52,590 nucleotides of DNA from a bacterium (lineage in GTDB: Bacteria; Patescibacteriota; Minisyncoccia; Minisyncoccales; JAUYFS01). The DNA is taken from NCBI GenBank assembly GCA_030689665.1, contig JAUYFS010000014.1:1-52590 (forward strand), given 5' to 3'. A model generated the notes under the pieces. That model saw only the letters and a list, made by a program, of their open reading frames with translations, was not told the origin of the DNA and did not search any database. Below, piece after piece: positions 2,258-50,144 of this stretch (within the stretch, counting starts at the first letter, position 1; every line of letters begins with the position of its first letter). A program made the translations under genes and the position numbers.

Positions 2258-3058
2258 ATGGAAAAGTATTTTGATAAAAAAAATTTCTCATTATATTTTG
2301 GAGATTCTTTAGAATTATTGAAACAATTTAAAGATGAGTCTTTTGATATGATTTTCGCTGATCCGCCTTACTTTTTGTCAAGCGGAACTTTTACATGTCA
2401 AAATGGAAAAAAAGTAAGCGTTAAAAAAGGAGATTGGGATTTGAGTAATGGATTTAAAAAGAATTTTGAATTTCAGGAAAGCTGGATTAAAGAATGCAAA
2501 AGATTATTAAAACCCAACGGGACAATTTGGGTAAGCGGAACCTATCACTCTATTTATCAGTGCGGGATTATTCTTCAAAAAGAAAATTACCACATACTAA
2601 ATGATATTTGTTGGTACAAACCAAACGCTTCTCCAAATTTGAGTTGCAGGATGTTTACCGCGAGCCATGAGAGTTTAATTTGGGCTAGAAAGGATAAAAA
2701 AGGAAAACACATTTTTAATTACGATGTGATAAGAAATTGGAAAAAAAAACCTGTGGATAAAATTCATAACACGGGGAAACAAATGAGGTCTGTTTGGGCT
2801 ATAAATACACCACCCAGAGAAGAAAAAAAATTTGGCAAACATCCAACCCAAAAACCAGCGGAATTATTAACAAGAATAATTTTAGCAAGTACCAAAAGAG
2901 GCGATAAAGTTTTAGATCCATTTACGGGAAGTTCAACAACTGGACTCGTTGCTTTTTATCTTGGGAGGAATTTTACAGGCATAGATAAAGAAAAAAAGTT
3001 TTTAGAATTGTCTATTAAAAGGTTTGAAGATTTAGAAAACAAAATTAAAACAAAATAA
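2258..3058 (+). CDS. Type II DNA methyltransferase, beta-class (motif IV before motif I), probably N6-adenine, DpnA/M.MboI-like
   Basis: FADPPYF (motif IV) lies upstream of LDPFTGSSTTG (motif I). NLSCR, WARK and GKHPTQKP blocks resemble, from memory, the DpnA-type GATC methylases. Confidence 0.85.
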   Translation: MEKYFDKKNFSLYFGDSLELLKQFKDESFDMIFADPPYFLSSGTFTCQNGKKVSVKKGDWDLSNGFKKNFEFQESWIKECKRLLKPNGTIWVSGTYHSIYQCGIILQKENYHILNDICWYKPNASPNLSCRMFTASHESLIWARKDKKGKHIFNYDVIRNWKKKPVDKIHNTGKQMRSVWAINTPPREEKKFGKHPTQKPAELLTRIILASTKRGDKVLDPFTGSSTTGLVAFYLGRNFTGIDKEKKFLELSIKRFEDLENKIKTK

Positions 3059-3060
3059 AT

Positions 3061-3585
3061 ATGAAAAGAGGGGAAATTGGAGGAGCAAATACCCAAACAG
3101 GATTAGTTTTTGAGGGAAGGGTTGATTTTTTAACTTTTATCCAAAAGCAAAAAAACTACGGTATCAAAGGAAATGTGATTTTTTATAAGGATAAAGAGGT
3201 TGGAATGAGTTTTAAAAAGCACGAACTTTATAGATTTTTAGCAAAACAAGGGGTAAATTATCTGGATTATATTTCTAGAAAAATATTACCAGACGATGCG
3301 ATTTTTGTTATAGCCAACAACACCTTATTTGTTATTGAAGTTAAATTTCAAGAGGTTGCTGGTTCAACAGATGAAAAATTACAAACATGTGATTTTAAAA
3401 TAAGGCAATATAGAAAATTATTGTCATCTTTGAATATTGATGTTGAATATATTTATATCCTAAATGATTGGTTTAAAAAACCAGAATACAAAGACGTTCT
3501 TGATTACATTATTTCTATAAAAGGTTGTTCTTACTATTTTAGTTATTTGCCCCTAAAGAAAATAGGTTTGCCGGTTCCGGATTAA
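3061..3585 (+). CDS. Putative small PD-(D/E)XK restriction endonuclease, partner of the adjacent methyltransferase
   Basis: Starts 2 nt after the MTase stop. Candidate catalytic motif PDD-x13-EVK (ILPDDAIFVIANNTLFVIEVKFQ). I recognised no other family. Confidence 0.5.
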   Translation: MKRGEIGGANTQTGLVFEGRVDFLTFIQKQKNYGIKGNVIFYKDKEVGMSFKKHELYRFLAKQGVNYLDYISRKILPDDAIFVIANNTLFVIEVKFQEVAGSTDEKLQTCDFKIRQYRKLLSSLNIDVEYIYILNDWFKKPEYKDVLDYIISIKGCSYYFSYLPLKKIGLPVPD

Positions 3586-8156: not shown

Positions 8157-8475
8157 AGAGAGGAGTTAAATAAATAATAGTTTAGATAGCGTTTTTCCGG
8201 TTCTACAATTTTAGAAAAGAACTGGACTCAAGTAATCTTGAGAACTATCTAAACACTTAATAAGGAGGAATATATGGGTTGTCATTCCTCATGATATTAA
8301 AAGTTTTAATATCGTTGCAGGACAACCCGAATATGGAGAGCGAGAAAAAATCTTTCCAGATGAAGCGGTTCATCTCAAATAAATCGCGCATCTGAAATCT
8401 ATTTGAAAGATTTCCTTTTTCCTCTCCTTTTCCTTTTTTATACAAAGTTTTCAGGGGCCCGTCCTCTGATTTTTT
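8157..8475 (+). ncRNA. Candidate roughly 320-nt structured RNA with its own promoter and terminator (unclassified). Contains a 6-codon uORF.
   Basis: Three-way junction: P1 8180-8189/8245-8254, P2 8197-8204/8218-8225 (with one G-U valid only on +), P3 8227-8232/8237-8242. AAGGAGG at 8262-8268 lies 5 nt before ATG 8274 (MGCHSS, stop at 8292-8294) and is pairable with ATTCCTC at 8284-8290. The terminator TCAGGGG-CCCGT-CCTCTGA (8451-8469) is followed by TTTTTT. Confidence 0.45.
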
Positions 8476-12170: not shown

Positions 12171-12238
12171 CCCGCCTCCGCCCCTAAGGGCTTCGGCGAG
12201 GCAAAGCCCGCCTCCGCCCCTGAGGGCTTCGGCGAGGC
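12171..12238. repeat. Tandem duplication of a 32-nt GC-rich palindromic unit (REP-like)
   Basis: CCCGCCTCCGCCCCTAAGGGCTTCGGCGAGGC (12171-12202), AAAG, then the same unit with one A-to-G change (12207-12238). Confidence 0.8.
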
Positions 12239-12271: not shown

Positions 12272-12298
12272 TACTTTTAACACTTTGTTTTTTAAAAA

Positions 12299-12344
12299 AT
12301 TTACCCTCCCAAATTTTTCTACAAAAAACTTAGGAGGGTGAAAA
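12299..12344 (+). repeat. Anti-SD/SD palindromic element, short form (copy A). No canonical ATG follows.
   Basis: TTACCCTCCCAAATTTTT-CTAC-AAAAAACTTAGGAGGGTG. A possible TTG-initiated 16-codon uORF lies at 12347-12397. Confidence 0.7.
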
Positions 12345-12420
12345 GGTTGAAAAAAGAGCTTTGTTTCTCAATTTTTAAGGAATTGGGAGCAGGATAAAAA
12401 AATAATTAAAATTAATAATT

Positions 12421-12473
12421 AATAAATTCACCCTCCAAAATTTTTCTGCGAAAAACTTAGGAGGGTAAAAAAA
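12421..12473 (+). repeat. Anti-SD/SD palindromic element, short form (copy B), providing the tuf RBS
   Basis: AATAAATTCACCCTCCAAAATTTTTCTGCGAAAAACTTAGGAGGGTAAAAAAA. It is 53/53 identical to 43949-44001 and ends 2 nt before the tuf ATG. Confidence 0.85.
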
Positions 12474-12475
12474 AT

Positions 12476-22111: not shown

Positions 22112-22663
22112 ATGATAAACAAAGAGAAAAAAACATTTAGAAAAACAGGAGGAAGAGAATTTAAAAAAGACGACGGTTTTGACTCCAAGCTTTTGGATTT
22201 GGCGCGGGTAACGAGAGTCACTGGCGGCGGGAAAAAACTTAGTTTCAGAGCCACTGTTGTTGTCGGCGACAAAAAAGGAAAGGTTGGCGTTGGCATTTCC
22301 AAGGGCCTTGATGTTTCTCAGTCCATAGAAAAAGCGACAAGAGACGCAAAAAGAAACTTGATTAAAGTTCCGATTATTGACGGCACAATTCCCCACGAAG
22401 TGACCGCTAAATTTGGCGCGGCAAGAATTTTACTAAGGCCGCAAAGAAAAGGAAGAGGTTTGGTCGCCGGCGGAACCGTAAGAGCGATTTGCGATTTGGT
22501 TGGGATTAAAGATATTTCGTCAAAGGTTCTTTCAAAAACAAAGAATAAACTGAATAACGCTCGAGCGACAATTATTGCTTTATCCAGCTTTCGCCAAGCT
22601 CGTCAAAATAAAAAAGAAAACATTAAGGAAAGCATTGAAGAAATAGAAGCGCCAGAAAAATAA
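22112..22663 (+). CDS. rpsE: 30S ribosomal protein S5 (with a C-terminal extension)
   Basis: VTRVTGGGKKLSFRATVVVGDKKGKVGVGISKG...LRPQRKGRGLVAGG. Confidence 0.96.
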   Translation: MINKEKKTFRKTGGREFKKDDGFDSKLLDLARVTRVTGGGKKLSFRATVVVGDKKGKVGVGISKGLDVSQSIEKATRDAKRNLIKVPIIDGTIPHEVTAKFGAARILLRPQRKGRGLVAGGTVRAICDLVGIKDISSKVLSKTKNKLNNARATIIALSSFRQARQNKKENIKESIEEIEAPEK

Positions 22664-22664
22664 A

Positions 22665-22775
22665 TTTACCCTCCCAAATTTTTGACCGGGAGGATTAAAA
22701 CCAGACGATGACGTTTAATAAATAAAAATTAACACCCTTACGTTTTTAGAAAAACCAAAAATTTGGGAGGGTAAA
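22665..22775 (+). repeat. Anti-SD/SD palindromic element, long form (copy C). It fills the position where rpmD (L30) normally sits.
   Basis: The 19-nt arms TTTACCCTCCCAAATTTTT (22665-22683) and AAAAATTTGGGAGGGTAAA (22757-22775) are perfect reverse complements, with a 73-nt loop. Confidence 0.9.
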
Positions 22776-22780
22776 AAATC

Positions 22781-25922: not shown

Positions 25923-26079
25923 TAATAAATAAAGGTAAATATTCCTTAGCGACAAGAGTGGGCTTCTACCACTAATTCCATGTCAGGCTGAACCTTGACA
26001 TAGGCTTGACACAGGATTGTAAAACGATAATATAAAAAGAAGAGATACAAAGACAAATTAAAATAATAAAAATAAAAAT

Positions 26080-26367
26080 ATGTCATTTTTTTCTCAAAAA
26101 ATAAAGAAACAGGAAGAAACCCAGATAATAACGACTGGTCTAAAGGTAGAAGATTTAATAAAAAAAAATGTTCTCGAAGAACTTAAAAATAAGTTTAGTG
26201 GAAATGAAAGAATAGATACAACTGCAGTTGTATTTCATGTTATGTCTAAAGATGATAAAAACATAGCGTCAATCGTAATAGACCACAAGTCTCCAAAACA
26301 GCTAAAAGATGGGGTTGCCATTATAACTTCAAGTAAAAGCGAGGCGTTGAAAAGGTTTATAAAATAA
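26080..26367 (+). CDS. Hypothetical small protein (95 aa)
   Basis: An ORF with a plausible upstream promoter (TTGACA near 26007). I recognised no family. Confidence 0.4.
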   Translation: MSFFSQKIKKQEETQIITTGLKVEDLIKKNVLEELKNKFSGNERIDTTAVVFHVMSKDDKNIASIVIDHKSPKQLKDGVAIITSSKSEALKRFIK

Positions 26368-26381
26368 TATTTTAAAAACAT

Positions 26382-26732
26382 ATGGAAAAATCAACGGGAA
26401 ATGCAACAATTTATGAAGAAACATCTGAGGGATTTAGAGTAGACACCAATGAATTATTTTCTAATGTTACTATAACTAGGTGGGAATATGAGTCGCTAAG
26501 GAACGAAATTGATGCACTTCAAAAATCATTAAGATTAAAAGAGTGTAATTTTCGAGAAATAAGTGATGCCCAAGCCAGAAAAGACATACACCAGTTTATT
26601 ATTCAAAAGAAGAAAGAGGGTCTTAAGTCAATAAGGACAATCAATATAGTCTCTTCATTGGGTTTGCCCGCTAATCAAGTTGAAGAGATAATAAATAAAC
26701 TTATTAAGAGAAAAAAAATAGTTGAAGTATGA
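26382..26732 (+). CDS. Hypothetical protein with a C-terminal winged-helix-like segment (116 aa)
   Basis: The C-terminal DIHQFIIQKKKEGLKSIRTINIVSSLGLPANQVEEIINKLIKRKKIVE looks like a wHTH. The stop overlaps the next start (ATGA). Confidence 0.4.
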   Translation: MEKSTGNATIYEETSEGFRVDTNELFSNVTITRWEYESLRNEIDALQKSLRLKECNFREISDAQARKDIHQFIIQKKKEGLKSIRTINIVSSLGLPANQVEEIINKLIKRKKIVEV

Positions 26733-26947
26733 GCGCCTACTTTCCACTTACTAACCATGGTTGGTTTAAATTAGAATCTATTTTGGGAGACAAAGTTATA
26801 ATTCATGCGGTTAGGATAGAAAAAACCAAAGGAAGGATTACTAGTCATCACAAAAATCATAAAGTAGAAGAAGCTAAGGCAACCGGAAGCGTCGAAATTA
26901 CGTCTAGAATTTTTTTACAAGAGTTGGATATAACAAAATACTCATGA
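26729..26947 (+). CDS. Hypothetical small protein (72 aa), translationally coupled to the preceding ORF
   Basis: 4-nt ATGA overlap with 26382-26732. I recognised no family. Confidence 0.35.
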   Translation: MSAYFPLTNHGWFKLESILGDKVIIHAVRIEKTKGRITSHHKNHKVEEAKATGSVEITSRIFLQELDITKYS

Positions 26948-27118
26948 AGAAATCCCTGCAAAAACAGGCATTTTTTGACTTTCTAAACCTTACTATCTGC
27001 AAAGGCGAGAAAACAACACCTCAAACTAGGTTTGCATCAAAAGAGGACGGGTTTTATTAGACCTTGATTTTATTTTTTTAAAATTTTAATATTAATAAAG
27101 GTGCAAATTTTAAATTTT

Positions 27119-27168
27119 TCCCGCCACATATATTTTATTTTAGTAGGCGGGATCCCGACAAGTCGGGA
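27119..27168 (+). repeat. REP-like double hairpin (CCCGCC...GGCGGG followed by TCCCGAC-AA-GTCGGGA)
   Basis: TCCCGCC (27119-27125) pairs with GGCGGGA (27146-27152). TCCCGAC (27153-27159) pairs with GTCGGGA (27162-27168). It shares TTAGTAGGCGGGA with the copy at 39993-40006. Confidence 0.8.
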
Positions 27169-27188: not shown

Positions 27189-28889
27189 ATGAAAACCAAT
27201 AAAAACCTGTTAGCTGCAATTTTAGTTATTTCAATTTTTGCTTTAACGCCAGCCGCAACCACAAAGGCGGTTAGCGTAAAGGATTTGGTCTCAAAATTAT
27301 ATTTAATTCAAAAACAGCTTGATGCTTTAAGCCAACAAGCATCCAGTTATTATGCCCAGCAAGCCGCTGTTGTTCAAAAAGCGCAAGAGGAGGCGGTTGA
27401 AAAAGCCAAACAAACAAGCGCTGGCGATGGCAAAACAACTGTTCAAGAAAATTCAGAATCAGTTGAAAAAAAATCTGACACAGGAGAAGAAAAAACAACA
27501 ATTGATTACGGCGAAGTGGCAAGGCTTCAGAATATGGTTGATTTGGGTTATCAAAATTGGAGATTGGTGCCAGGGCTGGTTTTAAAAAATGAGGGATTGA
27601 ATTACAGATTTTTAAAAGAAGAACTTGAAACCGCCAAACAAATTTCTTATTTTTCAAATATCGGGGTTGCGAAATACAGCGCGATTCACGACTCAAAAAT
27701 GTGGACCATTACTTTGATTCAGCCGACAATAGGGGTGGGAAAAATTTGGACTGTTTCCGAGACCAAAATAACTGACGACTTAAAAACCGCTCCTTGCGGC
27801 AATTACGGGGATTTAAACAACGATAAGTTTTTAACTCAGGAAGACGCGGATATTTTATTGAACTATATTTATCTGGGCGGTTCATTAACCAATGAACAAA
27901 CAATAAACGGCGATATAAACAATGACGGAAAAATAGATTTGTTTGATTCAATTTATTTAAAGAAATTTTTAGACGGAAAAGTTTCCAAATTCCCGGTTTG
28001 TTTCGGAGATTTTAGCGTTGTTTTGCCGGAAGAAAAAGAAACATTAATCAATGGCAGCAGTTATACGATAAAATGGACAATACCCAAGGGCGTTGAATCA
28101 TATTTGATTGATTTTTCCATAAAAGACAGCAAAAAAGAATATCCGGTTGATAAAATTTATGTTAATCCTTTTTCAGAATATGACGAAAACGGGGTGATTG
28201 TTATTGGCTATAATTGGCAAATCAAGGAAAAAATTGGAACTGATTACAAAATAAAACTGGATGTCAAAAATTTTGACGATGAAGTTTTACTCACGGCTGA
28301 AAGTAAAAAGAGTTTTAAAATTGAGAACATTTCCAGCGATAAAAAATTTCCACCATGCGGGAATTACGGGGATTTAACCTATAACGGCTACATTGACTTT
28401 TTAGACGCTGCTTTAATTAGGAACTATGTTAAAAAAATCGGCTATTTGTCCCAAAAACAAAAGGGAATTTCTGATTTAAACAATAACGGCAGAATAGATG
28501 CCGGGGACGCAAATGTAATTGATTTTTATCTTCAGGGAAAAATTTCCAGTTTTTTGACTTGTTCAAGCAAAACGACAAAACTCGATTTAAGCGTGGAAAA
28601 AGTTTCTTTTAGCGACGAGGGAATGGCTGTTATTGAACTGAAAAATTCAGCCAGCGTTAAAATAGGAAATAACGAAATTATTACTGGATGGATTTACAAA
28701 GACAACATTTTTGCCAAAGAATTTTCAGTTACAGGAATTGATTTTTCAAAAAGCGGGAAAGCAACTATCCAAGAAAATATTGGCGAAGTTGCGGAAAAAA
28801 TTCTTGTTTTGATTGACCCTTTGAATTCAATAGCTGAAGAATCGGAAAATAACAATTATTTTGTTTTTGAGAAAAAAACAACTAAATAA
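27189..28889 (+). CDS. Secreted multidomain protein with two Cys-bracketed dockerin-type (EF-hand-like) modules
   Basis: Signal peptide MKTNKNLLAAILVISIFALTPAATTKA. The dockerin repeats GDLNNDKFLTQEDAD...GDINNDGKIDLFDS span nt 27792-28001. GDLTYNGYIDFLDAA...SDLNNNGRIDAGDAN span nt 28353-28562. Each starts PCGNYGDL and ends at a Cys. Confidence 0.75.
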   Translation: MKTNKNLLAAILVISIFALTPAATTKAVSVKDLVSKLYLIQKQLDALSQQASSYYAQQAAVVQKAQEEAVEKAKQTSAGDGKTTVQENSESVEKKSDTGEEKTTIDYGEVARLQNMVDLGYQNWRLVPGLVLKNEGLNYRFLKEELETAKQISYFSNIGVAKYSAIHDSKMWTITLIQPTIGVGKIWTVSETKITDDLKTAPCGNYGDLNNDKFLTQEDADILLNYIYLGGSLTNEQTINGDINNDGKIDLFDSIYLKKFLDGKVSKFPVCFGDFSVVLPEEKETLINGSSYTIKWTIPKGVESYLIDFSIKDSKKEYPVDKIYVNPFSEYDENGVIVIGYNWQIKEKIGTDYKIKLDVKNFDDEVLLTAESKKSFKIENISSDKKFPPCGNYGDLTYNGYIDFLDAALIRNYVKKIGYLSQKQKGISDLNNNGRIDAGDANVIDFYLQGKISSFLTCSSKTTKLDLSVEKVSFSDEGMAVIELKNSASVKIGNNEIITGWIYKDNIFAKEFSVTGIDFSKSGKATIQENIGEVAEKILVLIDPLNSIAEESENNNYFVFEKKTTK

Positions 28890-38123: not shown

Positions 38124-39119
38124 ATGATATCTTATCCTAAATCAATAAAAATAGTTAAAAAAACCGAGAATCACGGTATTTTTGAAATAGGGCCTTTTTA
38201 TCCCGGGTATGGAATCACCATTGGCAACAGTTTGCGCAGAGTTTTGCTTTCTTCTTTGGAGGGGGCGGCAATTACCAGGGCAAAAATAAAGGGTATTTCC
38301 CATGAATTTTCGGCAATTCCGGGAGTTATGGAAGATGTTTTGGTTTTAGTTTTAAATTTAAAACAGATTCGTTTTAAAATGTTCAGCGACGAGCCGGAAA
38401 AAGCATTGCTAAAAGTTAAGGGTGAGAGAGAGGCACGGGCAAAAGATATTGAGACCTCGCCCAATTTAGAAATTATCAACAAAGACGCTTTGATAGCCAC
38501 TTTAACAGAAAAGAAAGCTGAACTGGAAATGGAACTTACCATTGAAAGGGGGCTTGGTTATGAGCCGGCTGAAAGATTAGAAAAAAATAAAAAACTGGAA
38601 ATAGGAGAGATTGTTTTGGACGCGGTTTTTTCTCCGGTAACCAGAGTTATTTTCAAAACAGAAAACATTCGTGTCGGAGACAGGACTGATTTTGACAAAT
38701 TAATTTTGGAAATTGAAACAGATGGGACCATTGACCCTGACGGAGCATTATATAAATCAGCAGCCATCTTAAAGAAACATTTTGATTTTGTGGAAAGCAA
38801 TTTAGAACCAAAGGGAGAGAAAAAAGAAAAAAAGGAAAAAGGCGGAGAAAAAGAAGAAGAAAAAGATGAGATTGGAAAAATCAAAATTCAAGAATTAGGG
38901 CTTTCCCAAAGGGTTATTAACGCTCTAGAAAAGAATAAAATTAAAACAGTTAGCGGATTGATAAAGAAAAAAGAAAAGGATTTGTTGGAAATGGAAGGGC
39001 TGGGAGAACAAGCCGTTGGCGAGATAAAAAAGAAATTGAAAAAAATAGATTTGGAATTTTCCCCGATTTTATCGGGGACCCCGCCTTCAAAAATAAAAAA
39101 GGCGGCAAGGAAACAATAA
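38124..39119 (+). CDS. rpoA: DNA-directed RNA polymerase subunit alpha. The last ~19 codons are encoded by a REP-like element.
   Basis: GPFYPGYGITIGNSLRRVLLSSLEGAAI, with the alpha-CTD LGLSQRVINALEKNKIKTVSGL. ATG 38124 is preferred over 38034, which overlaps rpsD. Confidence 0.94.
   Translation: MISYPKSIKIVKKTENHGIFEIGPFYPGYGITIGNSLRRVLLSSLEGAAITRAKIKGISHEFSAIPGVMEDVLVLVLNLKQIRFKMFSDEPEKALLKVKGEREARAKDIETSPNLEIINKDALIATLTEKKAELEMELTIERGLGYEPAERLEKNKKLEIGEIVLDAVFSPVTRVIFKTENIRVGDRTDFDKLILEIETDGTIDPDGALYKSAAILKKHFDFVESNLEPKGEKKEKKEKGGEKEEEKDEIGKIKIQELGLSQRVINALEKNKIKTVSGLIKKKEKDLLEMEGLGEQAVGEIKKKLKKIDLEFSPILSGTPPSKIKKAARKQ
39061..39106 (-). repeat. REP-like double hairpin in inverse orientation, inside the rpoA 3' end
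   Basis: CCCCGAT-TTT-ATCGGGG (39061-39077), then CCGCC-N-GGCGG (39081-39105). On the minus strand this reads as the CCGCC...GGCGG plus CCCCGAT...ATCGGGG layout of the 27119 and 39973 copies. Confidence 0.7.
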
Positions 39120-39120
39120 A

Positions 39121-39229
39121 TTCACCCTCCCAAATTTTTGGGCGGCGAATTAGTCAAAAATAGCATTAAAATTAAATAACAATTAACATTCTCGCGATTT
39201 TTGGAAAGCCAAAAACTTGGGAGGGTAAA
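39121..39229 (+). repeat. Anti-SD/SD palindromic element, long form (copy D), between rpoA and rplQ
   Basis: TTCACCCTCCCAAATTTTT (39121-39139) pairs with AAAAACTTGGGAGGGTAAA (39211-39229) at 17/19 positions. The 71-nt loop is homologous to the loop of copy C. The right arm ends 3 nt before ATG 39233. Confidence 0.85.
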
Positions 39230-39232
39230 AAA

Positions 39233-39583
39233 ATGAGAAAAAGAAATAAAGGAAGAAAATTCGGCAGGGAAACCGGACAAAGAAAAGCGCTATTAAAGAC
39301 CCTAGCTAGTTCTTTGGTTTTAAAAGGAAGAATAGAAACAACAGAGGAAAGAGCCAAAGAGCTGAGAGGTTTTATTGAAAAAATAATAACCAGGGCCAGA
39401 AAGGGCGATTTGGCTTCTAAAAAAAATGTTTACAGTTATTTTAATAAAACCATTGGCAAAAAATTGATAGATGAAATCGCTCCCAACTATAAAGAAAGAA
39501 AGGGCGGCTATACAAGAATTTTTAAATTGAATCCTAGAAAAAGCGACGGCTCAAAAATGGCTTTAATTGAATTTGTTAATTAA
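39233..39583 (+). CDS. rplQ: 50S ribosomal protein L17
   Basis: RKFGRETGQRKALLKTLASSLV...GGYTRI. Confidence 0.95.
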   Translation: MRKRNKGRKFGRETGQRKALLKTLASSLVLKGRIETTEERAKELRGFIEKIITRARKGDLASKKNVYSYFNKTIGKKLIDEIAPNYKERKGGYTRIFKLNPRKSDGSKMALIEFVN

Positions 39584-39587
39584 AATT

Positions 39588-39950
39588 ATGGAAGAAAAAA
39601 TTGAGAGAAAAACATACACAATAGACGCAAACGGAAAAATTTTAGGGAGATTGGCTTCAAAAATAGCGGTTTTGTTGATGGGAAAAAACAAGCCAAGTTT
39701 TATTAAAAATAAAGACATGGGTGATTTTGTTATTGTGAAGAATGTAAGCAAAATTAGGTTTACCGGAAACAAAATAAAGAAAAAGATTTTTTACAGGCAC
39801 ACTGGTTATATCGGGAGTTTGAAAAAAATCACATTAGGAAAGGCGTTTGAGGAAAATCCGGCAAAGGTTTTAAGAGCATCAATTTTTGGAATGCTTCCTA
39901 AAAATCGCCAGAGAAAAGAACGCCTTAGAAGGCTTAAAATTGAATTATAG
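39588..39950 (+). CDS. rplM: 50S ribosomal protein L13
   Basis: YTIDANGKILGRLASKIAVLLMGKNKP...YRHTGYIGSLK. ATG 39588 is preferred over the TTG at 39567. Confidence 0.93.
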   Translation: MEEKIERKTYTIDANGKILGRLASKIAVLLMGKNKPSFIKNKDMGDFVIVKNVSKIRFTGNKIKKKIFYRHTGYIGSLKKITLGKAFEENPAKVLRASIFGMLPKNRQRKERLRRLKIEL

Positions 39951-39954
39951 GAAT

Positions 39955-40422
39955 ATGGAGAAAAAAATGAAATCCCGCCGCAAACTTCTTAATTTAGTAG
40001 GCGGGACCCCCGATAAATCGGGGGAAAACACAAATCTTGAATATTGCGAGGGAGTTGGCAGAAGGAAAACTTCCATTGCCAGAGTTAGAATTTATCCAAA
40101 AAAAAGAGAGAAGGATTTTTTAGTTAATGATAAAAATTTTGAAGATTATTTTAAAACCCTTGAACTTAGAAAAATTGGAGAATCTCCTTTTAAAGAGATT
40201 GGCTCTAACTTTTACACAACCGTCAAGGTAAGCGGCGGCGGCATAAGAAGCCAGGCAACTGCCTTAAAATTGGGCATTAGCAGGGCCTTGGTTGTTTTTA
40301 ACCCTGAATTTAGGCATCGTTTGAGAGCTGCTGATTATTTGACCCGCGACGCAAGAAAAAGAGAAAGGAAAAAATTCGGTTTGAAACGAGCTCGCAGGGC
40401 CCCGCAATGGAGAAAGAGATAA
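39955..40422 (+). CDS. rpsI: 30S ribosomal protein S9 with a REP-element-encoded N-terminal extension
   Basis: GVGRRKTSIARVRIYP...GGGIRSQA...LTRDARKRERKKFGLKRARRAPQWRKR. The only in-frame ATGs upstream of the S9 core are 39955 and 39967, so the REP at 39973-40024 is translated. Confidence 0.9.
   Translation: MEKKMKSRRKLLNLVGGTPDKSGENTNLEYCEGVGRRKTSIARVRIYPKKREKDFLVNDKNFEDYFKTLELRKIGESPFKEIGSNFYTTVKVSGGGIRSQATALKLGISRALVVFNPEFRHRLRAADYLTRDARKRERKKFGLKRARRAPQWRKR
39973..40024 (+). repeat. REP-like double hairpin inside the rpsI 5' coding region
   Basis: TCCCGCC (39973-39979) pairs with GGCGGGA (40000-40006). CCCCCGAT (40007-40014) pairs with ATCGGGGG (40017-40024). Confidence 0.8.
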
Positions 40423-40424
40423 TT

Positions 40425-40547
40425 CGCTCGGCAACGAACCCCGCCCTCTATCCTAAAAGTCAAAAGAAAGAAAATTAAAATATTACGGAAACACTTGGGA
40501 TATCCTCAAGAAAAAACACAGATTAGAGGGCGGGGTTGTTGCCTCGC
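40425..40547. repeat. Long GC-rich inverted repeat (~24-nt arms, 73-nt loop) downstream of rpsI
   Basis: AACCCCGCCCTCTA (40437-40450) pairs with TAGAGGGCGGGGTT (40524-40537), a perfect 14 bp. It is extended by GGCAAC/GTTGCC. The loop contains CTTGGGATATCCTCAAG. Confidence 0.75.
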
Positions 40548-40564
40548 TCCTGATATAAAAAGGT

Positions 40565-41263
40565 ATGTTAAAAGAACTTATTGATAATTTTTACAAAGAA
40601 AGAGAAAAAAATCGCCAACAGACAAAGTTTTGGATTACAGACGCTGGTCGTTGTCCGAGAATGATTTTTTTCAAATTTAAAAACGCTCCCAAAAAGGGAA
40701 TTGACCCGAGAATTCTTAGAATGTTTGACCATGGCGATTATATTCATCGCCTTATTTTGAACGCCTTGTTTAGCGTTGGCATAGTCAGGGCTTCTGAAAT
40801 TAACATACCCTCTCAAGAATTAATTTCAGGAAGAGCGGACGCGATTATAAGCGTTGGCGACGAAATGTATGTTCTGGACATCAAAAGCATGAACAGCATG
40901 GTTTTTAGGGGCTTGGAAAAACCAAAAGAAGAGAACGAGAATCAACTCCAACTTTATTTGCATTATTTCAAAATTCCCAAGGGCATTCTTTTATATGTCA
41001 ATAAAGATACCCAGGATTTAAGGGAGTTTTTTATTGAAAAAAATCAAGAAATAATTGATGCTTTATTAAAGGAATTGCAGGACTTGAAAAATAAAATAGA
41101 CAGCGACGAAACTCCTGCCGCTTTGGCTGATCGCTCAAAGAATTGGCAATGCCAGTATTGCCAATTTAAAGATATTTGTTCTTTGATAGGCGAGGATAAT
41201 TTAAGCTGGGATAGCGCCAAAAACAAAATAGAAGCCCTAGAAACTAAAAAAGAGGACCAATAA
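40565..41263 (+). CDS. Stand-alone Cas4/RecB-like PD-(D/E)XK exonuclease with a 4-Cys Fe-S cluster signature
   Basis: N-terminal Cys (DAGRCPRM), RADAI...VLDIKS, QLQLY (QxxxY), and the C-terminal CQYCQFKDIC (C-x2-C-x5-C). Confidence 0.75.
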   Translation: MLKELIDNFYKEREKNRQQTKFWITDAGRCPRMIFFKFKNAPKKGIDPRILRMFDHGDYIHRLILNALFSVGIVRASEINIPSQELISGRADAIISVGDEMYVLDIKSMNSMVFRGLEKPKEENENQLQLYLHYFKIPKGILLYVNKDTQDLREFFIEKNQEIIDALLKELQDLKNKIDSDETPAALADRSKNWQCQYCQFKDICSLIGEDNLSWDSAKNKIEALETKKEDQ

Positions 41264-42684: not shown

Positions 42685-43953
42685 ATGGAAGAAAAAGTTT
42701 TTATTATTCACGGTCAAAAGCCGCTTCGCGGAGAAGTTGAAATCAGCGGCTATAAAAACGCAGCTGGCCCGATTCTAGCCGCCACCTTATTAAGCGACGA
42801 AGATTTTATAATAAAAAACCTGCCCCTTGTTGAGGATATTTTGAATTTAATTGAAATTTTAGAAAAACTTGGCAGCAAAGTTGAATGGATCGGAAAAAAT
42901 TCAATTAAAATCAACAACAAAAACATTGATTTAAACAACATTGATTTTGAAAAAATTAAGCAAAGCAGAGTTTCAGTTCTTTTGATAGGTTCAATGCTCG
43001 CAAGGTTTGGAAATTTTAAAATAAGCAGGCCTGGAGGCGACAGAATCGGTCTTAGGCCAATAACAACCCATTTGGACGCTTTTAAAAAACTGGGAGTCAG
43101 ATTAGAAGAAGATAGCGATTATTATTATTTTTACGGAGATAAAATAAAACCAGAGACATTGATTTTGAAAGAATTCAGCGTTACTGCCACTGAAAATTTG
43201 ATGATGGCAGCTTCTTTATTGGAAGGAGAAACAACTATTAAAATGGCTGCGCTTGAGCCTCAAATTCAAGATTTGGGCGATTTTTTGATTAAAATGGGCG
43301 TTCAGATAAAAGGTTTAAAAATGCACACAATTAAAATAAAAGGCAATAAAAAATTAAAAGGGGTTGAACATGAGATAATTTCAGACCCAACCGAAGCAGC
43401 GACTTTTATCATAGCTGGATGTCTTACTCCGGGCGAGGTGGTTATAAAAAATTTGGTTTCCGAATATCTTGATTCAACGATTGATAAATTGAAAGAAATA
43501 GGGGTTAACATTGAGGAGATTGATGAAAAAAGTTTAATTGTCAGGTTTTCTCCGGACTTGCAGCCGGCAAAAGTTCAAGCGCTGCCGTTTCCCGGTTTTC
43601 CAACAGATGTTTTACCCTTAATTGCAACTCTTTTGACGCAAGCAAACGGAAAAAGTTTAATTCACGACCCTTTGTACGAAAACCGGCTAAATTATATCCA
43701 CGAACTTAGAAAAATGGGCGCTGATATAGAAATTGTTGACCCCCACAGAGCGTTTATTTTCGGAAAAACAAAACTAAAAGGCGTTGAAATCGGCAGCTGG
43801 GACATAAGAGCGGGCGCTTCGCTGGTTCTTGCCGCAATTTTGGCTGACGGTAAAACCACGATAAAAGACATTTTTCAGATTGACAGAGGATATGAAAAAA
43901 TTGACGAGAAATTAAAAAAATTAGGAGCTGATATAGAAAGAATCAGCCAATAA
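42685..43953 (+). CDS. murA: UDP-N-acetylglucosamine 1-carboxyvinyltransferase (Asp variant at the fosfomycin-target Cys position)
   Basis: RGEVEISGYKNAAGPILAATLL, and RPGGDRIGLRP (Asp codon GAC at 43039-43041, where E. coli has Cys115). ATG 42685 is preferred over TTG 42649. Confidence 0.93.
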   Translation: MEEKVFIIHGQKPLRGEVEISGYKNAAGPILAATLLSDEDFIIKNLPLVEDILNLIEILEKLGSKVEWIGKNSIKINNKNIDLNNIDFEKIKQSRVSVLLIGSMLARFGNFKISRPGGDRIGLRPITTHLDAFKKLGVRLEEDSDYYYFYGDKIKPETLILKEFSVTATENLMMAASLLEGETTIKMAALEPQIQDLGDFLIKMGVQIKGLKMHTIKIKGNKKLKGVEHEIISDPTEAATFIIAGCLTPGEVVIKNLVSEYLDSTIDKLKEIGVNIEEIDEKSLIVRFSPDLQPAKVQALPFPGFPTDVLPLIATLLTQANGKSLIHDPLYENRLNYIHELRKMGADIEIVDPHRAFIFGKTKLKGVEIGSWDIRAGASLVLAAILADGKTTIKDIFQIDRGYEKIDEKLKKLGADIERISQ

Positions 43954-44001
43954 ATTCACCCTCCAAAATTTTTCTGCGAAAAACTTAGGAGGGTAAAAAA
44001 A
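43949..44001 (+). repeat. Anti-SD/SD palindromic element, short form (copy E), between murA and mreB
   Basis: 53/53 identical to 12421-12473. It overlaps the murA TAA and ends 1 nt before ATG 44003. Confidence 0.85.
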
Positions 44002-44002
44002 C

Positions 44003-45013
44003 ATGTTTTCCAAAAAAATAGGCATAGATTTGGGCACAAGCAAAAGCGTGGTTGTGGTAAATAAAAAGGGAATAGTTTTAAACGAACCCTCGGTTGTTGC
44101 CGTTTCCCTTAATGAAAATAGGGTTTTGGCAGTGGGAGAAGAAGCCAAACAAATGATTGGCAAAACTCCGGAAAACATTGTTGTTTATAGGCCGATGAAA
44201 GAGGGCGTTATCGCTGATTACAGGGTTACCCAAGCAATGCTTAAATATTTTATTCGGAAAGCGTTGGGCAGGTTTGATTTTTTCAAGCCCGAAGTTTTGG
44301 TGGCTATTCCCGATGGAGCCACTTCTACTGAAAAAAGGGCTGTTGTGGAAGCTGGTTTAAGCGCTGGCGCCAAGGCGGTTTATCCGGTAAAATCGTCAAT
44401 TTTGGCTGCCATTGGCGCTGATTTGCCGATTTATTCATGCGCTGGCCATATGATTATTGATATTGGCGGCGGGACAACTGAAATCGCCGTTATATCTTTA
44501 GGCGGAATTGTTTTTTCAAAATCAGTCAAAGTCGGGGGAGACAAGCTGGACTCAGCGATTATGAATTACATAAAAGAAAAAAATAATTTGGCGATAGGAG
44601 AACAAACCGCGGAACTTATAAAGAAAAAAATCGGGAGCGCGATTCCAAGCAGAAAAAAAGAAGAGTTTTTGGAAATAAAAGGCAGAGATTTGGTTTCAGG
44701 ATTGCCGCGCAACATTAAAATAGACGCTAACAGCGTTTGCGAGGCGATACAAGAACCGCTGGCAGAGATAATCCAGCATATCAAAATGGTTTTAAAAAGA
44801 ATTCCTCCGGAATTGTCAGCGGACATTATTGATAAAGGAATGGTTTTGGCTGGCGGCAGTTCTAATTTAAGAAACCTTGAAAAACTAATCACAAAAACAA
44901 CCGGAGTTCCGTCAATAAAAGCCAAAGATGCAGGGCTTTGCGTTACCAGAGGAGTGGAAAGAGTTTTGCCCAATCTTGATATTTACAAGAAAAGTTTATT
45001 AATTAAGGTTTGA
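44003..45013 (+). CDS. mreB: Rod-shape/actin-like protein MreB (paralog 1)
   Basis: IGIDLGTSKSVV, DIGGGTTEIAVISLGGIV, and VLAGGSSNLRNL. Confidence 0.9.
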   Translation: MFSKKIGIDLGTSKSVVVVNKKGIVLNEPSVVAVSLNENRVLAVGEEAKQMIGKTPENIVVYRPMKEGVIADYRVTQAMLKYFIRKALGRFDFFKPEVLVAIPDGATSTEKRAVVEAGLSAGAKAVYPVKSSILAAIGADLPIYSCAGHMIIDIGGGTTEIAVISLGGIVFSKSVKVGGDKLDSAIMNYIKEKNNLAIGEQTAELIKKKIGSAIPSRKKEEFLEIKGRDLVSGLPRNIKIDANSVCEAIQEPLAEIIQHIKMVLKRIPPELSADIIDKGMVLAGGSSNLRNLEKLITKTTGVPSIKAKDAGLCVTRGVERVLPNLDIYKKSLLIKV

Positions 45014-46390: not shown

Positions 46391-46398
46391 AAAACAAA

Positions 46399-48760: not shown

Positions 48761-49797
48761 CGCTATTTTCAAAAGACATTGCCATTGATTTAGGAACAGC
48801 CAATTCTTTGGTTTATGTCAAAGGCGAAGGAATTGTTATTTCAGAGCCCTCGGTTGTTGCAGTTAATCAAAAAACAGGACAAATTTTGGCAATTGGCAAC
48901 GAGGCAAAAAGAATGGTTGGAAGAACGCCAGCTCATGTTGTGGCGACCAGACCCTTGGCCCACGGCGTTGTTTTTGATTTTGAGGCGACTGAACAAATTT
49001 TGAGGTTTTTTATTGAAGAGGTTCACAAAAAAAGCATTTTTCCGATTTTTCATCCAAGGGTTATTGTCGGAATTCCTTCAGCTATCACCGAAGTTGAAAG
49101 AAAGGCGGTTTCTGACGCAACCAAATATGCCGGAGCAAGGGAGGTTTTTTTAATTGAACAGCCAATGGCTTCGGCAATCGGGGCGCGGCTGCAAATTCAG
49201 GAACCAGGGGGAAATTTTATTGTTGATATTGGCGGCGGAACAACAGATATTGCGGTTATTTCTTTGGGCGGAATTGTTGTTGATAGAAGCTTAAAAATAG
49301 CCGGCGACAAACTGAACCAGGACATAATTGATTATGTTCAGGAGGAATACAAGCTTTTAATTGGAGAAAGGACAGCAGAGGAAATAAAAATAAATATCGG
49401 TTCAGTATTGCCTTTGAAAGAAAAAAAAGAAGCGCCAATAAGGGGCAGGAATTTAATAACCGGTTTGCCTGAGGAAATTATTTTAACCAACGAGGACATT
49501 AGAACAGCCATAGAAAAATCAGTAAAACAAATTATTGAGGCGGTAAAAACAACGATTGAAGAAACGCCGCCAGAACTTATTTCTGACATTATGAAAAAGG
49601 GCATTTTTTTGACCGGCGGCGGAGCTTTGTTAAGGGGTTTGGACCAGTTGATTTCCAAAGAAACAAAAATGCCGGTTAAATTGGTGGAAGACCCGCTTAC
49701 TGCGGTTGTCCGAGGAGCGGGCGTGGTTTTGGAAAATCTGGACGAACTCAAAGAGGTTTTGGTGGACATGGATTATGGCGATGTTCCTCAAATTTAA
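48742..49797 (+). CDS. mreB: Rod-shape/actin-like protein MreB (paralog 2)
   Basis: FSKDIAIDLGTANSLV, DIGGGTTDIAVISLGGIV, and FLTGGGALLRGL. 19-nt overlap with proS. Confidence 0.92.
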   Translation: MFKKLLALFSKDIAIDLGTANSLVYVKGEGIVISEPSVVAVNQKTGQILAIGNEAKRMVGRTPAHVVATRPLAHGVVFDFEATEQILRFFIEEVHKKSIFPIFHPRVIVGIPSAITEVERKAVSDATKYAGAREVFLIEQPMASAIGARLQIQEPGGNFIVDIGGGTTDIAVISLGGIVVDRSLKIAGDKLNQDIIDYVQEEYKLLIGERTAEEIKINIGSVLPLKEKKEAPIRGRNLITGLPEEIILTNEDIRTAIEKSVKQIIEAVKTTIEETPPELISDIMKKGIFLTGGGALLRGLDQLISKETKMPVKLVEDPLTAVVRGAGVVLENLDELKEVLVDMDYGDVPQI

Positions 49798-49845
49798 ATT
49801 CACCCTCCCAAATTTTTCGCAGGAAAACTTGGGATGGTAAACAAA
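49797..49845 (+). repeat. Anti-SD/SD palindromic element, short form (copy F, right arm decayed), between mreB2 and gatC
   Basis: AAATTCACCCTCCCAAATTTTTCGCAGGAAAACTTGGGATGGTAAAC. It overlaps the mreB2 TAA and ends 2 nt before ATG 49848. Confidence 0.75.
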
Positions 49846-49847
49846 AT

Positions 49848-50144
49848 ATGGATTTTAAAAAAGAAATTGAAAAAATAAGCGTTTTGGCAAGAATAGAATT
49901 GAGCGAAAAAGACAAAACAAAATTCTCAAAAGAACTGAATAAAATTTTGGACCATTTCAACATTCTTCAAAAAGCTGATGTCAAAGGAATTCAGCCGTTT
50001 TTAACTCATTCTGAATCACGAAATGTTTTTAGAAATGATGAGGCAAAAACTTGTTTTGGCAAAGAAATTTTAAAAGATGATTTTTTAGACAAACAGGGAA
50101 ATTATTTGAAAATTAAATCAGTCAAAAAAGAATGGGAATTATAG
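49848..50144 (+). CDS. gatC: Asp/Glu-tRNA amidotransferase subunit C
   Basis: IEKISVLARIELSEKDKTKFSKELNKILDHF; position upstream of gatA. Confidence 0.9.
   Translation: MDFKKEIEKISVLARIELSEKDKTKFSKELNKILDHFNILQKADVKGIQPFLTHSESRNVFRNDEAKTCFGKEILKDDFLDKQGNYLKIKSVKKEWEL

Follow-up and report, generated by a model that had tools for sequence, protein, structure and literature searches.

A family of small palindromic elements, each 50-52 nt long and made of two adjoining hairpins, is present in three copies in the window (the whole 52,590-nt stretch of DNA that was analysed), and two of these copies lie in frame within essential genes, where they add 18 codons near the 5' end of rpsI (ribosomal protein S9) and, in inverted orientation, 17 codons near the 3' end of rpoA (RNA polymerase α subunit). 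We consider it likely that the family is a duplicative, REP/MITE-like element that is tolerated in frame at permissive protein termini, in the manner of the Rickettsia palindromic elements (RPEs). The window stems from a single metagenome assembly in which the contig was assembled once; it has a low GC content (32-40%), nearly every gene is on the plus strand, and it carries the str/S10/spc/alpha ribosomal protein clusters. The best-named homologs of its S9, its RpoA and a glycosyltransferase belong to Patescibacteria/CPR (Parcubacteria, Paceibacterota, Nealsonbacteria, Minisyncoccales). Both intragenic copies fall in the gene run S11-S4-rpoA-rplQ-rplM-rpsI, and the intergenic spacers in these compact genomes comprise 2-15 nt.

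All three copies had been recognised in a first-pass annotation of this DNA, as an intergenic one at 27119-27168, one at 39973-40024 and an inverted one at 39061-39106, and pattern searches, in which the window was compared with 100 dinucleotide-preserving shuffles, confirmed them. The four arms of the element are variants of TCCCG(C/A)C and form a long-loop hairpin directly followed by a short-loop hairpin, with stems of 6-8 bp. Copy c1 (27119-27168, plus strand) is intergenic and reads TCCCGCC-N20-GGCGGGA, directly followed by TCCCGAC-AA-GTCGGGA. Copy c2 (39973-40024, plus strand) is a 52-nt double hairpin inside rpsI, and c3 (39060-39110, minus strand, i.e. inverted) is a 51-nt insert inside rpoA. 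The pattern CCCGCC-N10-35-GGCGGG matched twice (27120-27151 and 39974-40005) and CCCGAY-N1-6-RTCGGG three times (27154, 39062 and 40009), and the combined pattern CCGCC-N-GGCGG-N0-4-CCCGA also matched three times, the third match being located at 39072-39105 on the minus strand; none of the three patterns occurred in the shuffles. Scanning for adjacent GC-rich perfect hairpin pairs returned, besides the three copies, a single weak site and a tandem repeat at 12174 that is unrelated to them, and the same scan on mononucleotide shuffles yielded none in 19 of 20 trials. The stems of all three window copies are perfect or near-perfect, and the copies fold as two adjoining hairpins with energies of -21 to -26 kcal/mol and z values of -4 to -5.2 (c1: -21.4 kcal/mol, z -4.0; c2: -26.2 kcal/mol, z -4.9).

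Judged by sequence, the homology within the family reaches past the stems. Copies c1 and c2 both carry TTTAGTAGGCGGGA, as had been claimed before, c1 and c3 (the latter read on the minus strand) have CCGCCT-NNN-AAAATAAAA in common, and c2 and c3 share the hairpin CCCCGAT...ATCGGGG. A covariance model (CM) built from c1, the ortholog of c1 in a related locus (L055) and c2 only, with the RpoA copy left out, recovered the inverted copy in rpoA with 36.9 bits (E about 1e-8) and matched the rpoA copy of another relative (L003) with 25.7 bits. As c2 is closer to c1 of the window, with which it shares TTTAGTAGGCGGGA, than to the L055 ortholog of c1, the similarities point to copying within this lineage. 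Searching the whole window with filters off gave no further convincing copy, and the count within this genome, which covers the 52.6 kb of the window, is thus three copies, two of them intragenic. The next match, at 8196-8242, scored 15.7 bits (E 0.016). At 8180-8254 a 10-bp outer stem encloses a double hairpin of element-like architecture (-27.7 kcal/mol, z -5.2), followed by a strong Shine-Dalgarno sequence with a 6-codon mini-ORF (MGCHSS*; 8262-8295); next comes a region of T-rich repeats, about 500 nt long, that precedes rpsL. The structure at 8180-8295 may represent a leader or regulatory RNA, or else a member of the element family that has diverged.

The rpsI gene (39955..40422, plus strand) encodes 155 amino acids, the closest database orthologs having 137, and starts with an ATG 4 nt past the rplM stop codon, as it does in relatives, so that the ancestral start (MEKK...) is intact. 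The insert follows codon 6 in frame, comprises 54 nt (18 codons) and encodes SRRKLLNLVGGTPDKSGE, i.e. residues 7-24, with a predicted peptide that includes KLLNLVGGTPDK. In the protein alignment MEKK(M/E)K is followed by SRRKLLNLVGGTPDKSGE and then by N(T/K)N(L/F)EYCEG, the 18 middle residues being found in the window alone. None of the 17 other aligned S9 orthologs has a counterpart of these residues, and at the DNA level the site is uninterrupted in L001 and L002, whose S9 proteins are about 89% identical to that of the window, and in L003 (75%). Removal of 54 nt, from 39971-39973 to 40024-40026, leaves the fewest mismatches in the flanks and corresponds to the 52-nt element plus two A's within an A run, the target site being GAGAAA|AACAAA. 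The element had thus been placed correctly in the reading frame of rpsI, whereas the insert extends beyond the double hairpin to 39973-40026 (±2 nt). The extension is lineage-specific; it matches the element within 2 nt, and three relatives have the empty site.

The first-pass annotation had also stated that the S9 core lacks an in-frame start past the element. Inspection of the stretch after c2 for in-frame ATG, GTG, TTG, CTG and ATN codons bore this out, the sole candidate being ATT at codon 41, which lies within the conserved core. Since no start is available between c2 and the core, c2 has to be translated if S9 is made, and on this ground we infer that it is. Of the six frames of c2 only two are open, one of which is that of rpsI, as would be expected where insertions into an essential gene have to pass selection. 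In an AlphaFold2 model of S9, calculated with an alignment of 18 sequences, no secondary structure precedes residue 31, and pLDDT values are <50 for residues 10-25 and >90 in the core. Among Patescibacteria the total length of S9 ranges from 133 to 239 amino acids and the N-termini vary widely, suggesting that this terminus is permissive.

The second intragenic copy resides in rpoA (38124..39119, plus strand; 331 amino acids). Here the element is inverted and forms an in-frame insert of 51 nt (17 codons) that encodes SPILSGTPPSKIKKAAR ahead of the last two ancestral codons, KQ*, so that the ancestral stop is kept after the insert and the C-terminus reads ...KKIDLEF-SPILSGTPPSKIKKAAR-KQ*; the predicted peptide includes IDLEFSPILSGTPPSK. 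The earlier view that an inverted copy forms the last ~19 codons of rpoA holds for its place and orientation, the number of codons supplied before KQ* being 17. The tail is present in three of the 120 best RpoA homologs, namely in the protein of the window, in P0122 (83-84% identical; RpoA of L003) and in P0123 (71-74%; RpoA of L009), and the remaining 117 terminate at ...LE(L/F/I)K plus 0-3 residues. The closest relative, P0125 of L054 (91-92% identical), ends with ...IDLEFKK* and has an empty site: its DNA reads GAATTC|AAAAAATAA, compared with GAATTT[51 nt]AAACAATAA in the window. The rpoA gene of L010 is empty as well, and the empty junctions are identical (...GAATT(C/T)|AAAAAATAA). The best-fitting removal runs from 39059/39060 to 39109/39110, so that the tail, like the S9 extension, coincides with the element, in this case within 1 nt. 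Residues 314-331 of the AlphaFold model of RpoA, which follow the last helix of the C-terminal domain, have pLDDT values <50 and no secondary structure. According to the two models the inserted peptides of S9 and RpoA are probably disordered or floppy and located outside the folded cores.

The relatives were grouped as (((window, L054/L002), L003), (L009, L010)), L011 on the basis of concatenated S11, S4, RpoA, L17, L13 and S9 sequences, together with single-gene values for the fragments L054 and L002. The window, L003 and L009 carry the rpoA insert, and L054, L010 and L011 lack it. Given this grouping, the pattern needs three events: either a single gain and two exact losses, or as many as three gains that hit one site in one orientation. 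Window and L003 inserts are alike at 43 of 51 nt, the identity of the two genomes at 4-fold degenerate sites being 0.51, which implies that the rpoA copies are either constrained or younger than the split of the genomes. The window copy is also nearer to that of L003 than to c1 or c2, which favours common descent. Six of the eight substitutions between the two inserts, as read by eye, are non-synonymous, roughly the proportion of random change, so that a constraint at the protein level is not evident. The folding energy rises from -22 kcal/mol in the window to -17.7 kcal/mol in L003 (z -2.6 to -3.3) and -3.4 kcal/mol in L009 (z -0.6). A homologous extension lacking the element was sought as well, and the RpoA tail of L009 was found, the peptide of which (..TPLSKIKKVATK) is still recognisable though the hairpins have decayed; as its DNA can still be aligned to the element, this tail represents a decayed copy and does not speak against an insertion. 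The patchy distribution may reflect exact excision, repeated targeted insertion or allele exchange by recombination. A recombination tract behind it could not be shown: the part of rpoA that immediately precedes the insert resembles L054 (empty) more than L003 (filled).

Copy c1 is located 21 nt upstream of the ATG of a gene for a secreted protein with dockerin and CARDB domains (27189..28889, plus strand; 566 amino acids). L055, which together with L056 and L057 represents the same genome as L003, contains an ortholog of c1 at 8226-8275, again 21 nt upstream of the orthologous dockerin-protein gene and within a generally conserved upstream region. The presence of this ortholog in L055-L057 indicates that c1 is an old, conserved copy and was not inserted recently. 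Helix 1 of the L055 ortholog carries one compensatory exchange of C-G to T-A and one change of C-G to U-G, helix 2 has one mismatch, and altogether 4 of 28 stem nucleotides differ. The covariation, calculated from three sequences only, was equalled by 50 of 500 shuffles, and both compensatory changes are CpG transitions. The copies are better conserved than neutral sites (43/51 vs 0.51 for rpoA, 4/28 changed for c1), which agrees less well with passive decay than with selection, concerted evolution or a recent spread. Where the two hairpins of c1 adjoin (27148-27157), they form the palindrome CGGGATCCCG, which contains GGATCC. Between map and the region upstream of the dockerin gene lies a stretch of about 1.1 kb (25923-27050) with three small ORFs (95, 116 and 72 amino acids) that gave no Pfam match above threshold; as L055 has a 134-nt spacer at this position, the stretch appears to be an inserted cassette immediately upstream of c1.

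A further, partly decayed copy was matched by the CM in L009 (15567-15619, minus strand; 21.8 bits, E 5e-4), where it lies between frr and rseP with ATTTAA on each side. The frr-rseP spacer has 8 nt and no element both in the window (46391-46398) and in L003, demonstrating that copies occupy different sites in different lineages. Altogether four loci are known: rpsI is filled in the window alone, rpoA in the window, L003 and L009, frr-rseP in L009 alone, and the region upstream of the dockerin gene in the window and L055. The distribution among lineages differs from locus to locus, as is typical of a family that is duplicative and dispersed. The four loci are at most about 25 nt away from a start or stop codon, which may most simply be read as survivorship in genomes with spacers of 2-15 nt. 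The empty sites of rpoA and frr share the 11-mer AATTTAAAAAA, which was noticed post hoc, occurs five times in the 52.6 kb and is absent from the S9 target site; its presence at the two sites hints at a target preference. Flanking repeats could amount to AA (2 nt) at S9, to ≤1 nt at rpoA and to ATTTAA (6 nt) at frr-rseP of L009, and they sit in A/T runs, in which chance repeats are likely.

Outside these loci we searched 185,579 GTDB species genomes with the strict element pattern and obtained 12 matches, each of them in a genome with a GC content of 60-77% and explicable by chance. A slightly relaxed pattern gave 29 matches in JGI metagenome contigs, 28 of which are in loci of 50-74% GC. Neither search yielded an intact copy of the family or a further contig of this organism. 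The single match of low GC (L046) was rejected, as it lies inside a bacterial RNase P RNA gene (9805-10234 of L046; RF00010, 96 bits at a gathering score of 100, E 6e-30) that contains several CCCGCC...GGCGGG hairpins with A/T-rich loops, and it is thus no evidence for the element family. Rfam gave no match in the whole window at the gathering score and only noise in the operon (38900-40700) at E up to 1, and no tRNA or tmRNA gene was found. An intrinsic terminator was dismissed because no T run or terminator-like site is present at any copy on either strand, and no promoter signature was found at the copies. No transposase was detected among the 15 window ORFs that were scanned against Pfam, picked mainly for non-obvious function, or in the precomputed Pfam lists of the relatives' loci. 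A literature search for such elements in Patescibacteria gave nothing relevant.

These results have to be weighed against other explanations. The double hairpin might mainly be a functional RNA or DNA structure, such as a stabiliser of mRNA 5' or 3' ends, a processing site or a protein-binding site, that is selected at cistron boundaries, so that the rpsI and rpoA copies would be kept for their function and not as tolerated junk. A mobile origin, like that of E. coli REPs, would not conflict with such a function, but we regard this explanation as rather unlikely. Such a function could explain why c1 sits in a conserved upstream region with both stems kept in a relative of 51% 4-fold identity, why the c1 ortholog shows a C-G to T-A compensatory change and a G-U pair that works on the plus (mRNA) strand alone, why the stems are perfect or nearly so in each of the three window copies, and why the four known sites are so close (≤ about 25 nt) to start or stop codons. 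However, sister lineages at about 90% identity do without the S9 copy and the RpoA copy, so that neither is required, and the RpoA copy is inverted, which means that the mRNA holds the reverse complement. Furthermore, the hairpins decay in L003 and vanish in L009, Rfam contributed no match even at E up to 1, a terminator signature is missing, and the covariation among three sequences is weak, given that 50 of 500 shuffles equalled it and that both compensatory changes are CpG transitions. Selection at the level of the peptides, for instance as basic tails contacting RNA or DNA, with the palindromy of the DNA being incidental, is very improbable. The motif TP(P/L)(S/A)K(I/T)KK(A/V)A is indeed kept in the RpoA tail of three lineages, even where the hairpins have decayed, and the DNA of the tail is more conserved than 4-fold sites. 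Yet the same DNA occurs in both orientations and at non-coding sites (c1 and the frr-rseP copy of L009), sister lineages lack the peptides, six of eight substitutions in the RpoA insert are non-synonymous, and the peptides are modelled at low confidence and without secondary structure. The extensions might also be untranslated or unreal: the assembly could be at fault, the genes could be pseudogenes, translation could begin at a non-canonical start farther downstream, or the inserts could be removed from the RNA. The contig is present in one assembly only, and its S9 and RpoA each form a single-member protein cluster on that one contig; nevertheless, we find this explanation scarcely credible. 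Both inserts are multiples of three, contain no stop in the frame used and have intact conserved codons on either side, among them the ancestral start and stop, both genes are essential and present in one copy each in the window, and no ATG, GTG, TTG, CTG or ATN codon separates the element from the conserved S9 core. The RpoA insert, moreover, was assembled independently in other samples (L003 to L006, L009, L055 to L057).

The manner of mobilisation bears on a further alternative, namely that the hairpin pair is the minimal substrate of a transposase that recognises single-stranded hairpins, of the IS200/IS605 TnpA or RAYT type ('peel and paste'). Insertion at a preferred sequence without target duplication, combined with precise excision, would explain the repeated gain or exact loss in rpoA. 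The patchy RpoA insert (((window+, L054-), L003+), (L009+, L010-)) with its identical empty junctions agrees with this, as do the 11-mer AATTTAAAAAA common to the empty rpoA and frr sites, the inconsistent target duplication and the GTAG located 5' of GGCGGGA in c1 and c2. On the other hand, neither the 15 ORFs of the window that were scanned nor the relatives' Pfam lists contained a Y1 or any other transposase, GTAG is replaced by GAAG, GCAG or AGGG in other copies, the S9 target GAGAAA|AACAAA does not contain the 11-mer, the target motif was noticed post hoc, and homologous recombination between populations could yield an equal patchiness. We therefore view this alternative as doubtful. Equally speculative is the more far-reaching proposal of a minimal mobile element that is still active in CPR, with an AATTT|AAAAAA-type target and exact excision like that in 'peel-and-paste' transposition, which would have entered and left the same rpoA position several times in close lineages, its stems being kept by selection or concerted evolution. 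If this were true, the element would repeatedly furnish core informational proteins with new termini, and would do so in genomes regarded as almost devoid of mobile DNA.

According to the preferred explanation, i.e. a duplicative palindromic element tolerated in frame, the three copies would constitute one family of about 50-nt elements that spread, presumably by duplicative insertion, inside a small clade of Patescibacteria. Owing to the compactness of the genomes, with spacers of 2-15 nt, insertions would survive only at gene boundaries, and two of them would have hit essential genes with an open frame and a length that is a multiple of three, giving 18 codons in rpsI and 17 in rpoA. The ribosome would translate through the inserts from the ancestral start to the ancestral stop, and the added peptides would be tolerated, and possibly selectively neutral, as disordered tails on termini whose length varies among relatives. 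Points that speak against it are the lack of a transposase among the ORFs scanned and of an intact copy among the GTDB and JGI sequences searched, the inconsistent flanking duplications, the three events needed for rpoA, and a conservation of the copies above that of neutral sites. Provided that the inserts are translated, selfish palindromic DNA can be taken up as terminal peptides even by the best-conserved informational genes of a streamlined CPR genome. Where ribosomal and RNA polymerase subunits bear lineage-specific extensions, the inserts thereby offer an origin that is concrete and can be dated; to our knowledge, the origin of such extensions in CPR is otherwise unexplained. There is also a practical warning, as the inserts alter the lengths and alignments of genes used as phylogenetic markers (S9, RpoA).

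The principle has been known since the discovery of the RPEs; new are the host clade, the much smaller element and the clean pairs of empty and filled sites, but not the mechanism. RPEs are palindromic repeats located in frame in protein-coding genes and read through (Ogata et al. 2000, as cited in PMC10969869), and of the copies first reported in R. conorii nearly half are, by the account in PMC10969869, fused translationally to the ORFs in which they sit. Bacterial MITEs, too, are known to be fused in frame with ORFs of the host on occasion (PMC10969869). The element described here resembles RPEs in that palindromic inserts are found in frame in unrelated genes, including essential ones, with an extra peptide that is apparently compatible with fold and function, in that non-coding copies exist, and in that the host genomes are small and compact; its inserts of 54 and 51 nt have an open frame and retain the ancestral start and stop, and would be read through. 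RPEs, however, are about 100-150 bp long, belong to Rickettsia-specific sequence families and often lie inside proteins, whereas the present element has about 50 nt in two adjoining hairpins, an unrelated sequence and a host among the Patescibacteria, and both intragenic copies lie within 6-7 codons of a protein terminus. Its size of about 50 nt, its host and the lack of an Rfam match make it an analogue of the RPEs and not a member.

REPs and REPINs are similar: they, too, are short imperfect palindromes (20-65 nt), GC-rich against AT-richer surroundings, that lie at cistron boundaries and show no clear target duplication. Yet REPs are extragenic by definition, number tens to hundreds of copies and have a cognate RAYT gene (IS200/IS605-like Y1 transposase), whereas two of the three window copies are intragenic and no RAYT is among the 15 ORFs scanned. 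GTAG precedes GGCGGGA on its 5' side in c1 and c2, and the corresponding motif is GAAG in the reverse complement of c3, GCAG in L003 and AGGG in the L055 ortholog of c1; judged from these sequences, the element lacks the conserved GTAG that is a criterion for REPs. With MITEs such as Correia, ERIC, BOX/RUP and Anabaena MITEs it shares the character of a small non-autonomous repeat that is polymorphic for presence and absence among relatives. MITEs, in contrast, have defined terminal inverted repeats, a target duplication of fixed length and usually >100 bp, whereas the 'TIR' of the present element comprises about 5 nt (TCCCG/CGGGA) and its flanking duplications are inconsistent. At 6 of 7 positions the outer arms of c1 (TCCCGCC, GTCGGGA) are inversely complementary, a consequence of the one 7-mer shared by all four arms. 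PATEs (palindrome-associated transposable elements) are hairpin-only derivatives of IS200/IS605. They are alike in consisting of a left-end and a right-end hairpin with nothing between, and precise gain and loss without target duplication would fit them as well, but they are longer and are defined by ends that match those of a resident IS200/IS605 element. By analogy, the element is best described as a small REP/MITE-like palindromic repeat tolerated in frame in ORFs, and would be of the same known kind as the Rickettsia elements. The proposal of the first-pass annotation that REP/MITE insertions at gene ends were absorbed as extensions is thus supported by the lineage-specific terminal inserts; it has to be qualified in so far as the relation to REPs or MITEs is putative, the conserved GTAG is absent and c1 is old.

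Several other repeats are present in the window. A second family occurs at 12296-12345, 12423-12475, 22657-22778, 39113-39232, 43951-44003 and 49795-49850 and has the sequence AAATTCACCCTCC(C)AAATTTTT...AAAAACTT(A/G)GGAGGGTAAAAAAA-ATG. It forms a hairpin with CCCTCC as 5' arm and the Shine-Dalgarno sequence GGAGGG as 3' arm, directly upstream of the start codons of tuf, rplQ and other genes, and its copy between rpoA and rplQ is a 102-nt insertion that is absent from L054, L003, L009 and L010. The spacer between tuf and a 90-amino-acid ORF that follows fusA contains a tandem pair of a GC-rich 32-nt unit (CCCGCCTCCGCCCCTRAGGGCTTCGGCGAGGC; 12171-12238, spacing 36 nt). A gene for an N6/N4 DNA methyltransferase is followed by an unannotated ORF of 174 amino acids (2258-3585), possibly forming a restriction-modification pair. 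Finally, a long inverted repeat (GCTCGGCAACGAACCCCGCCCTCT ... AGAGGGCGGGGTTGTTGCCTCGC) lies at 40425-40555 between rpsI and a gene for a PD-(D/E)XK nuclease; L003 lacks it and has a spacer of 18 nt at this position, L001 has the same outer arms with a different interior, and the repeat looks like a MITE-like insertion.
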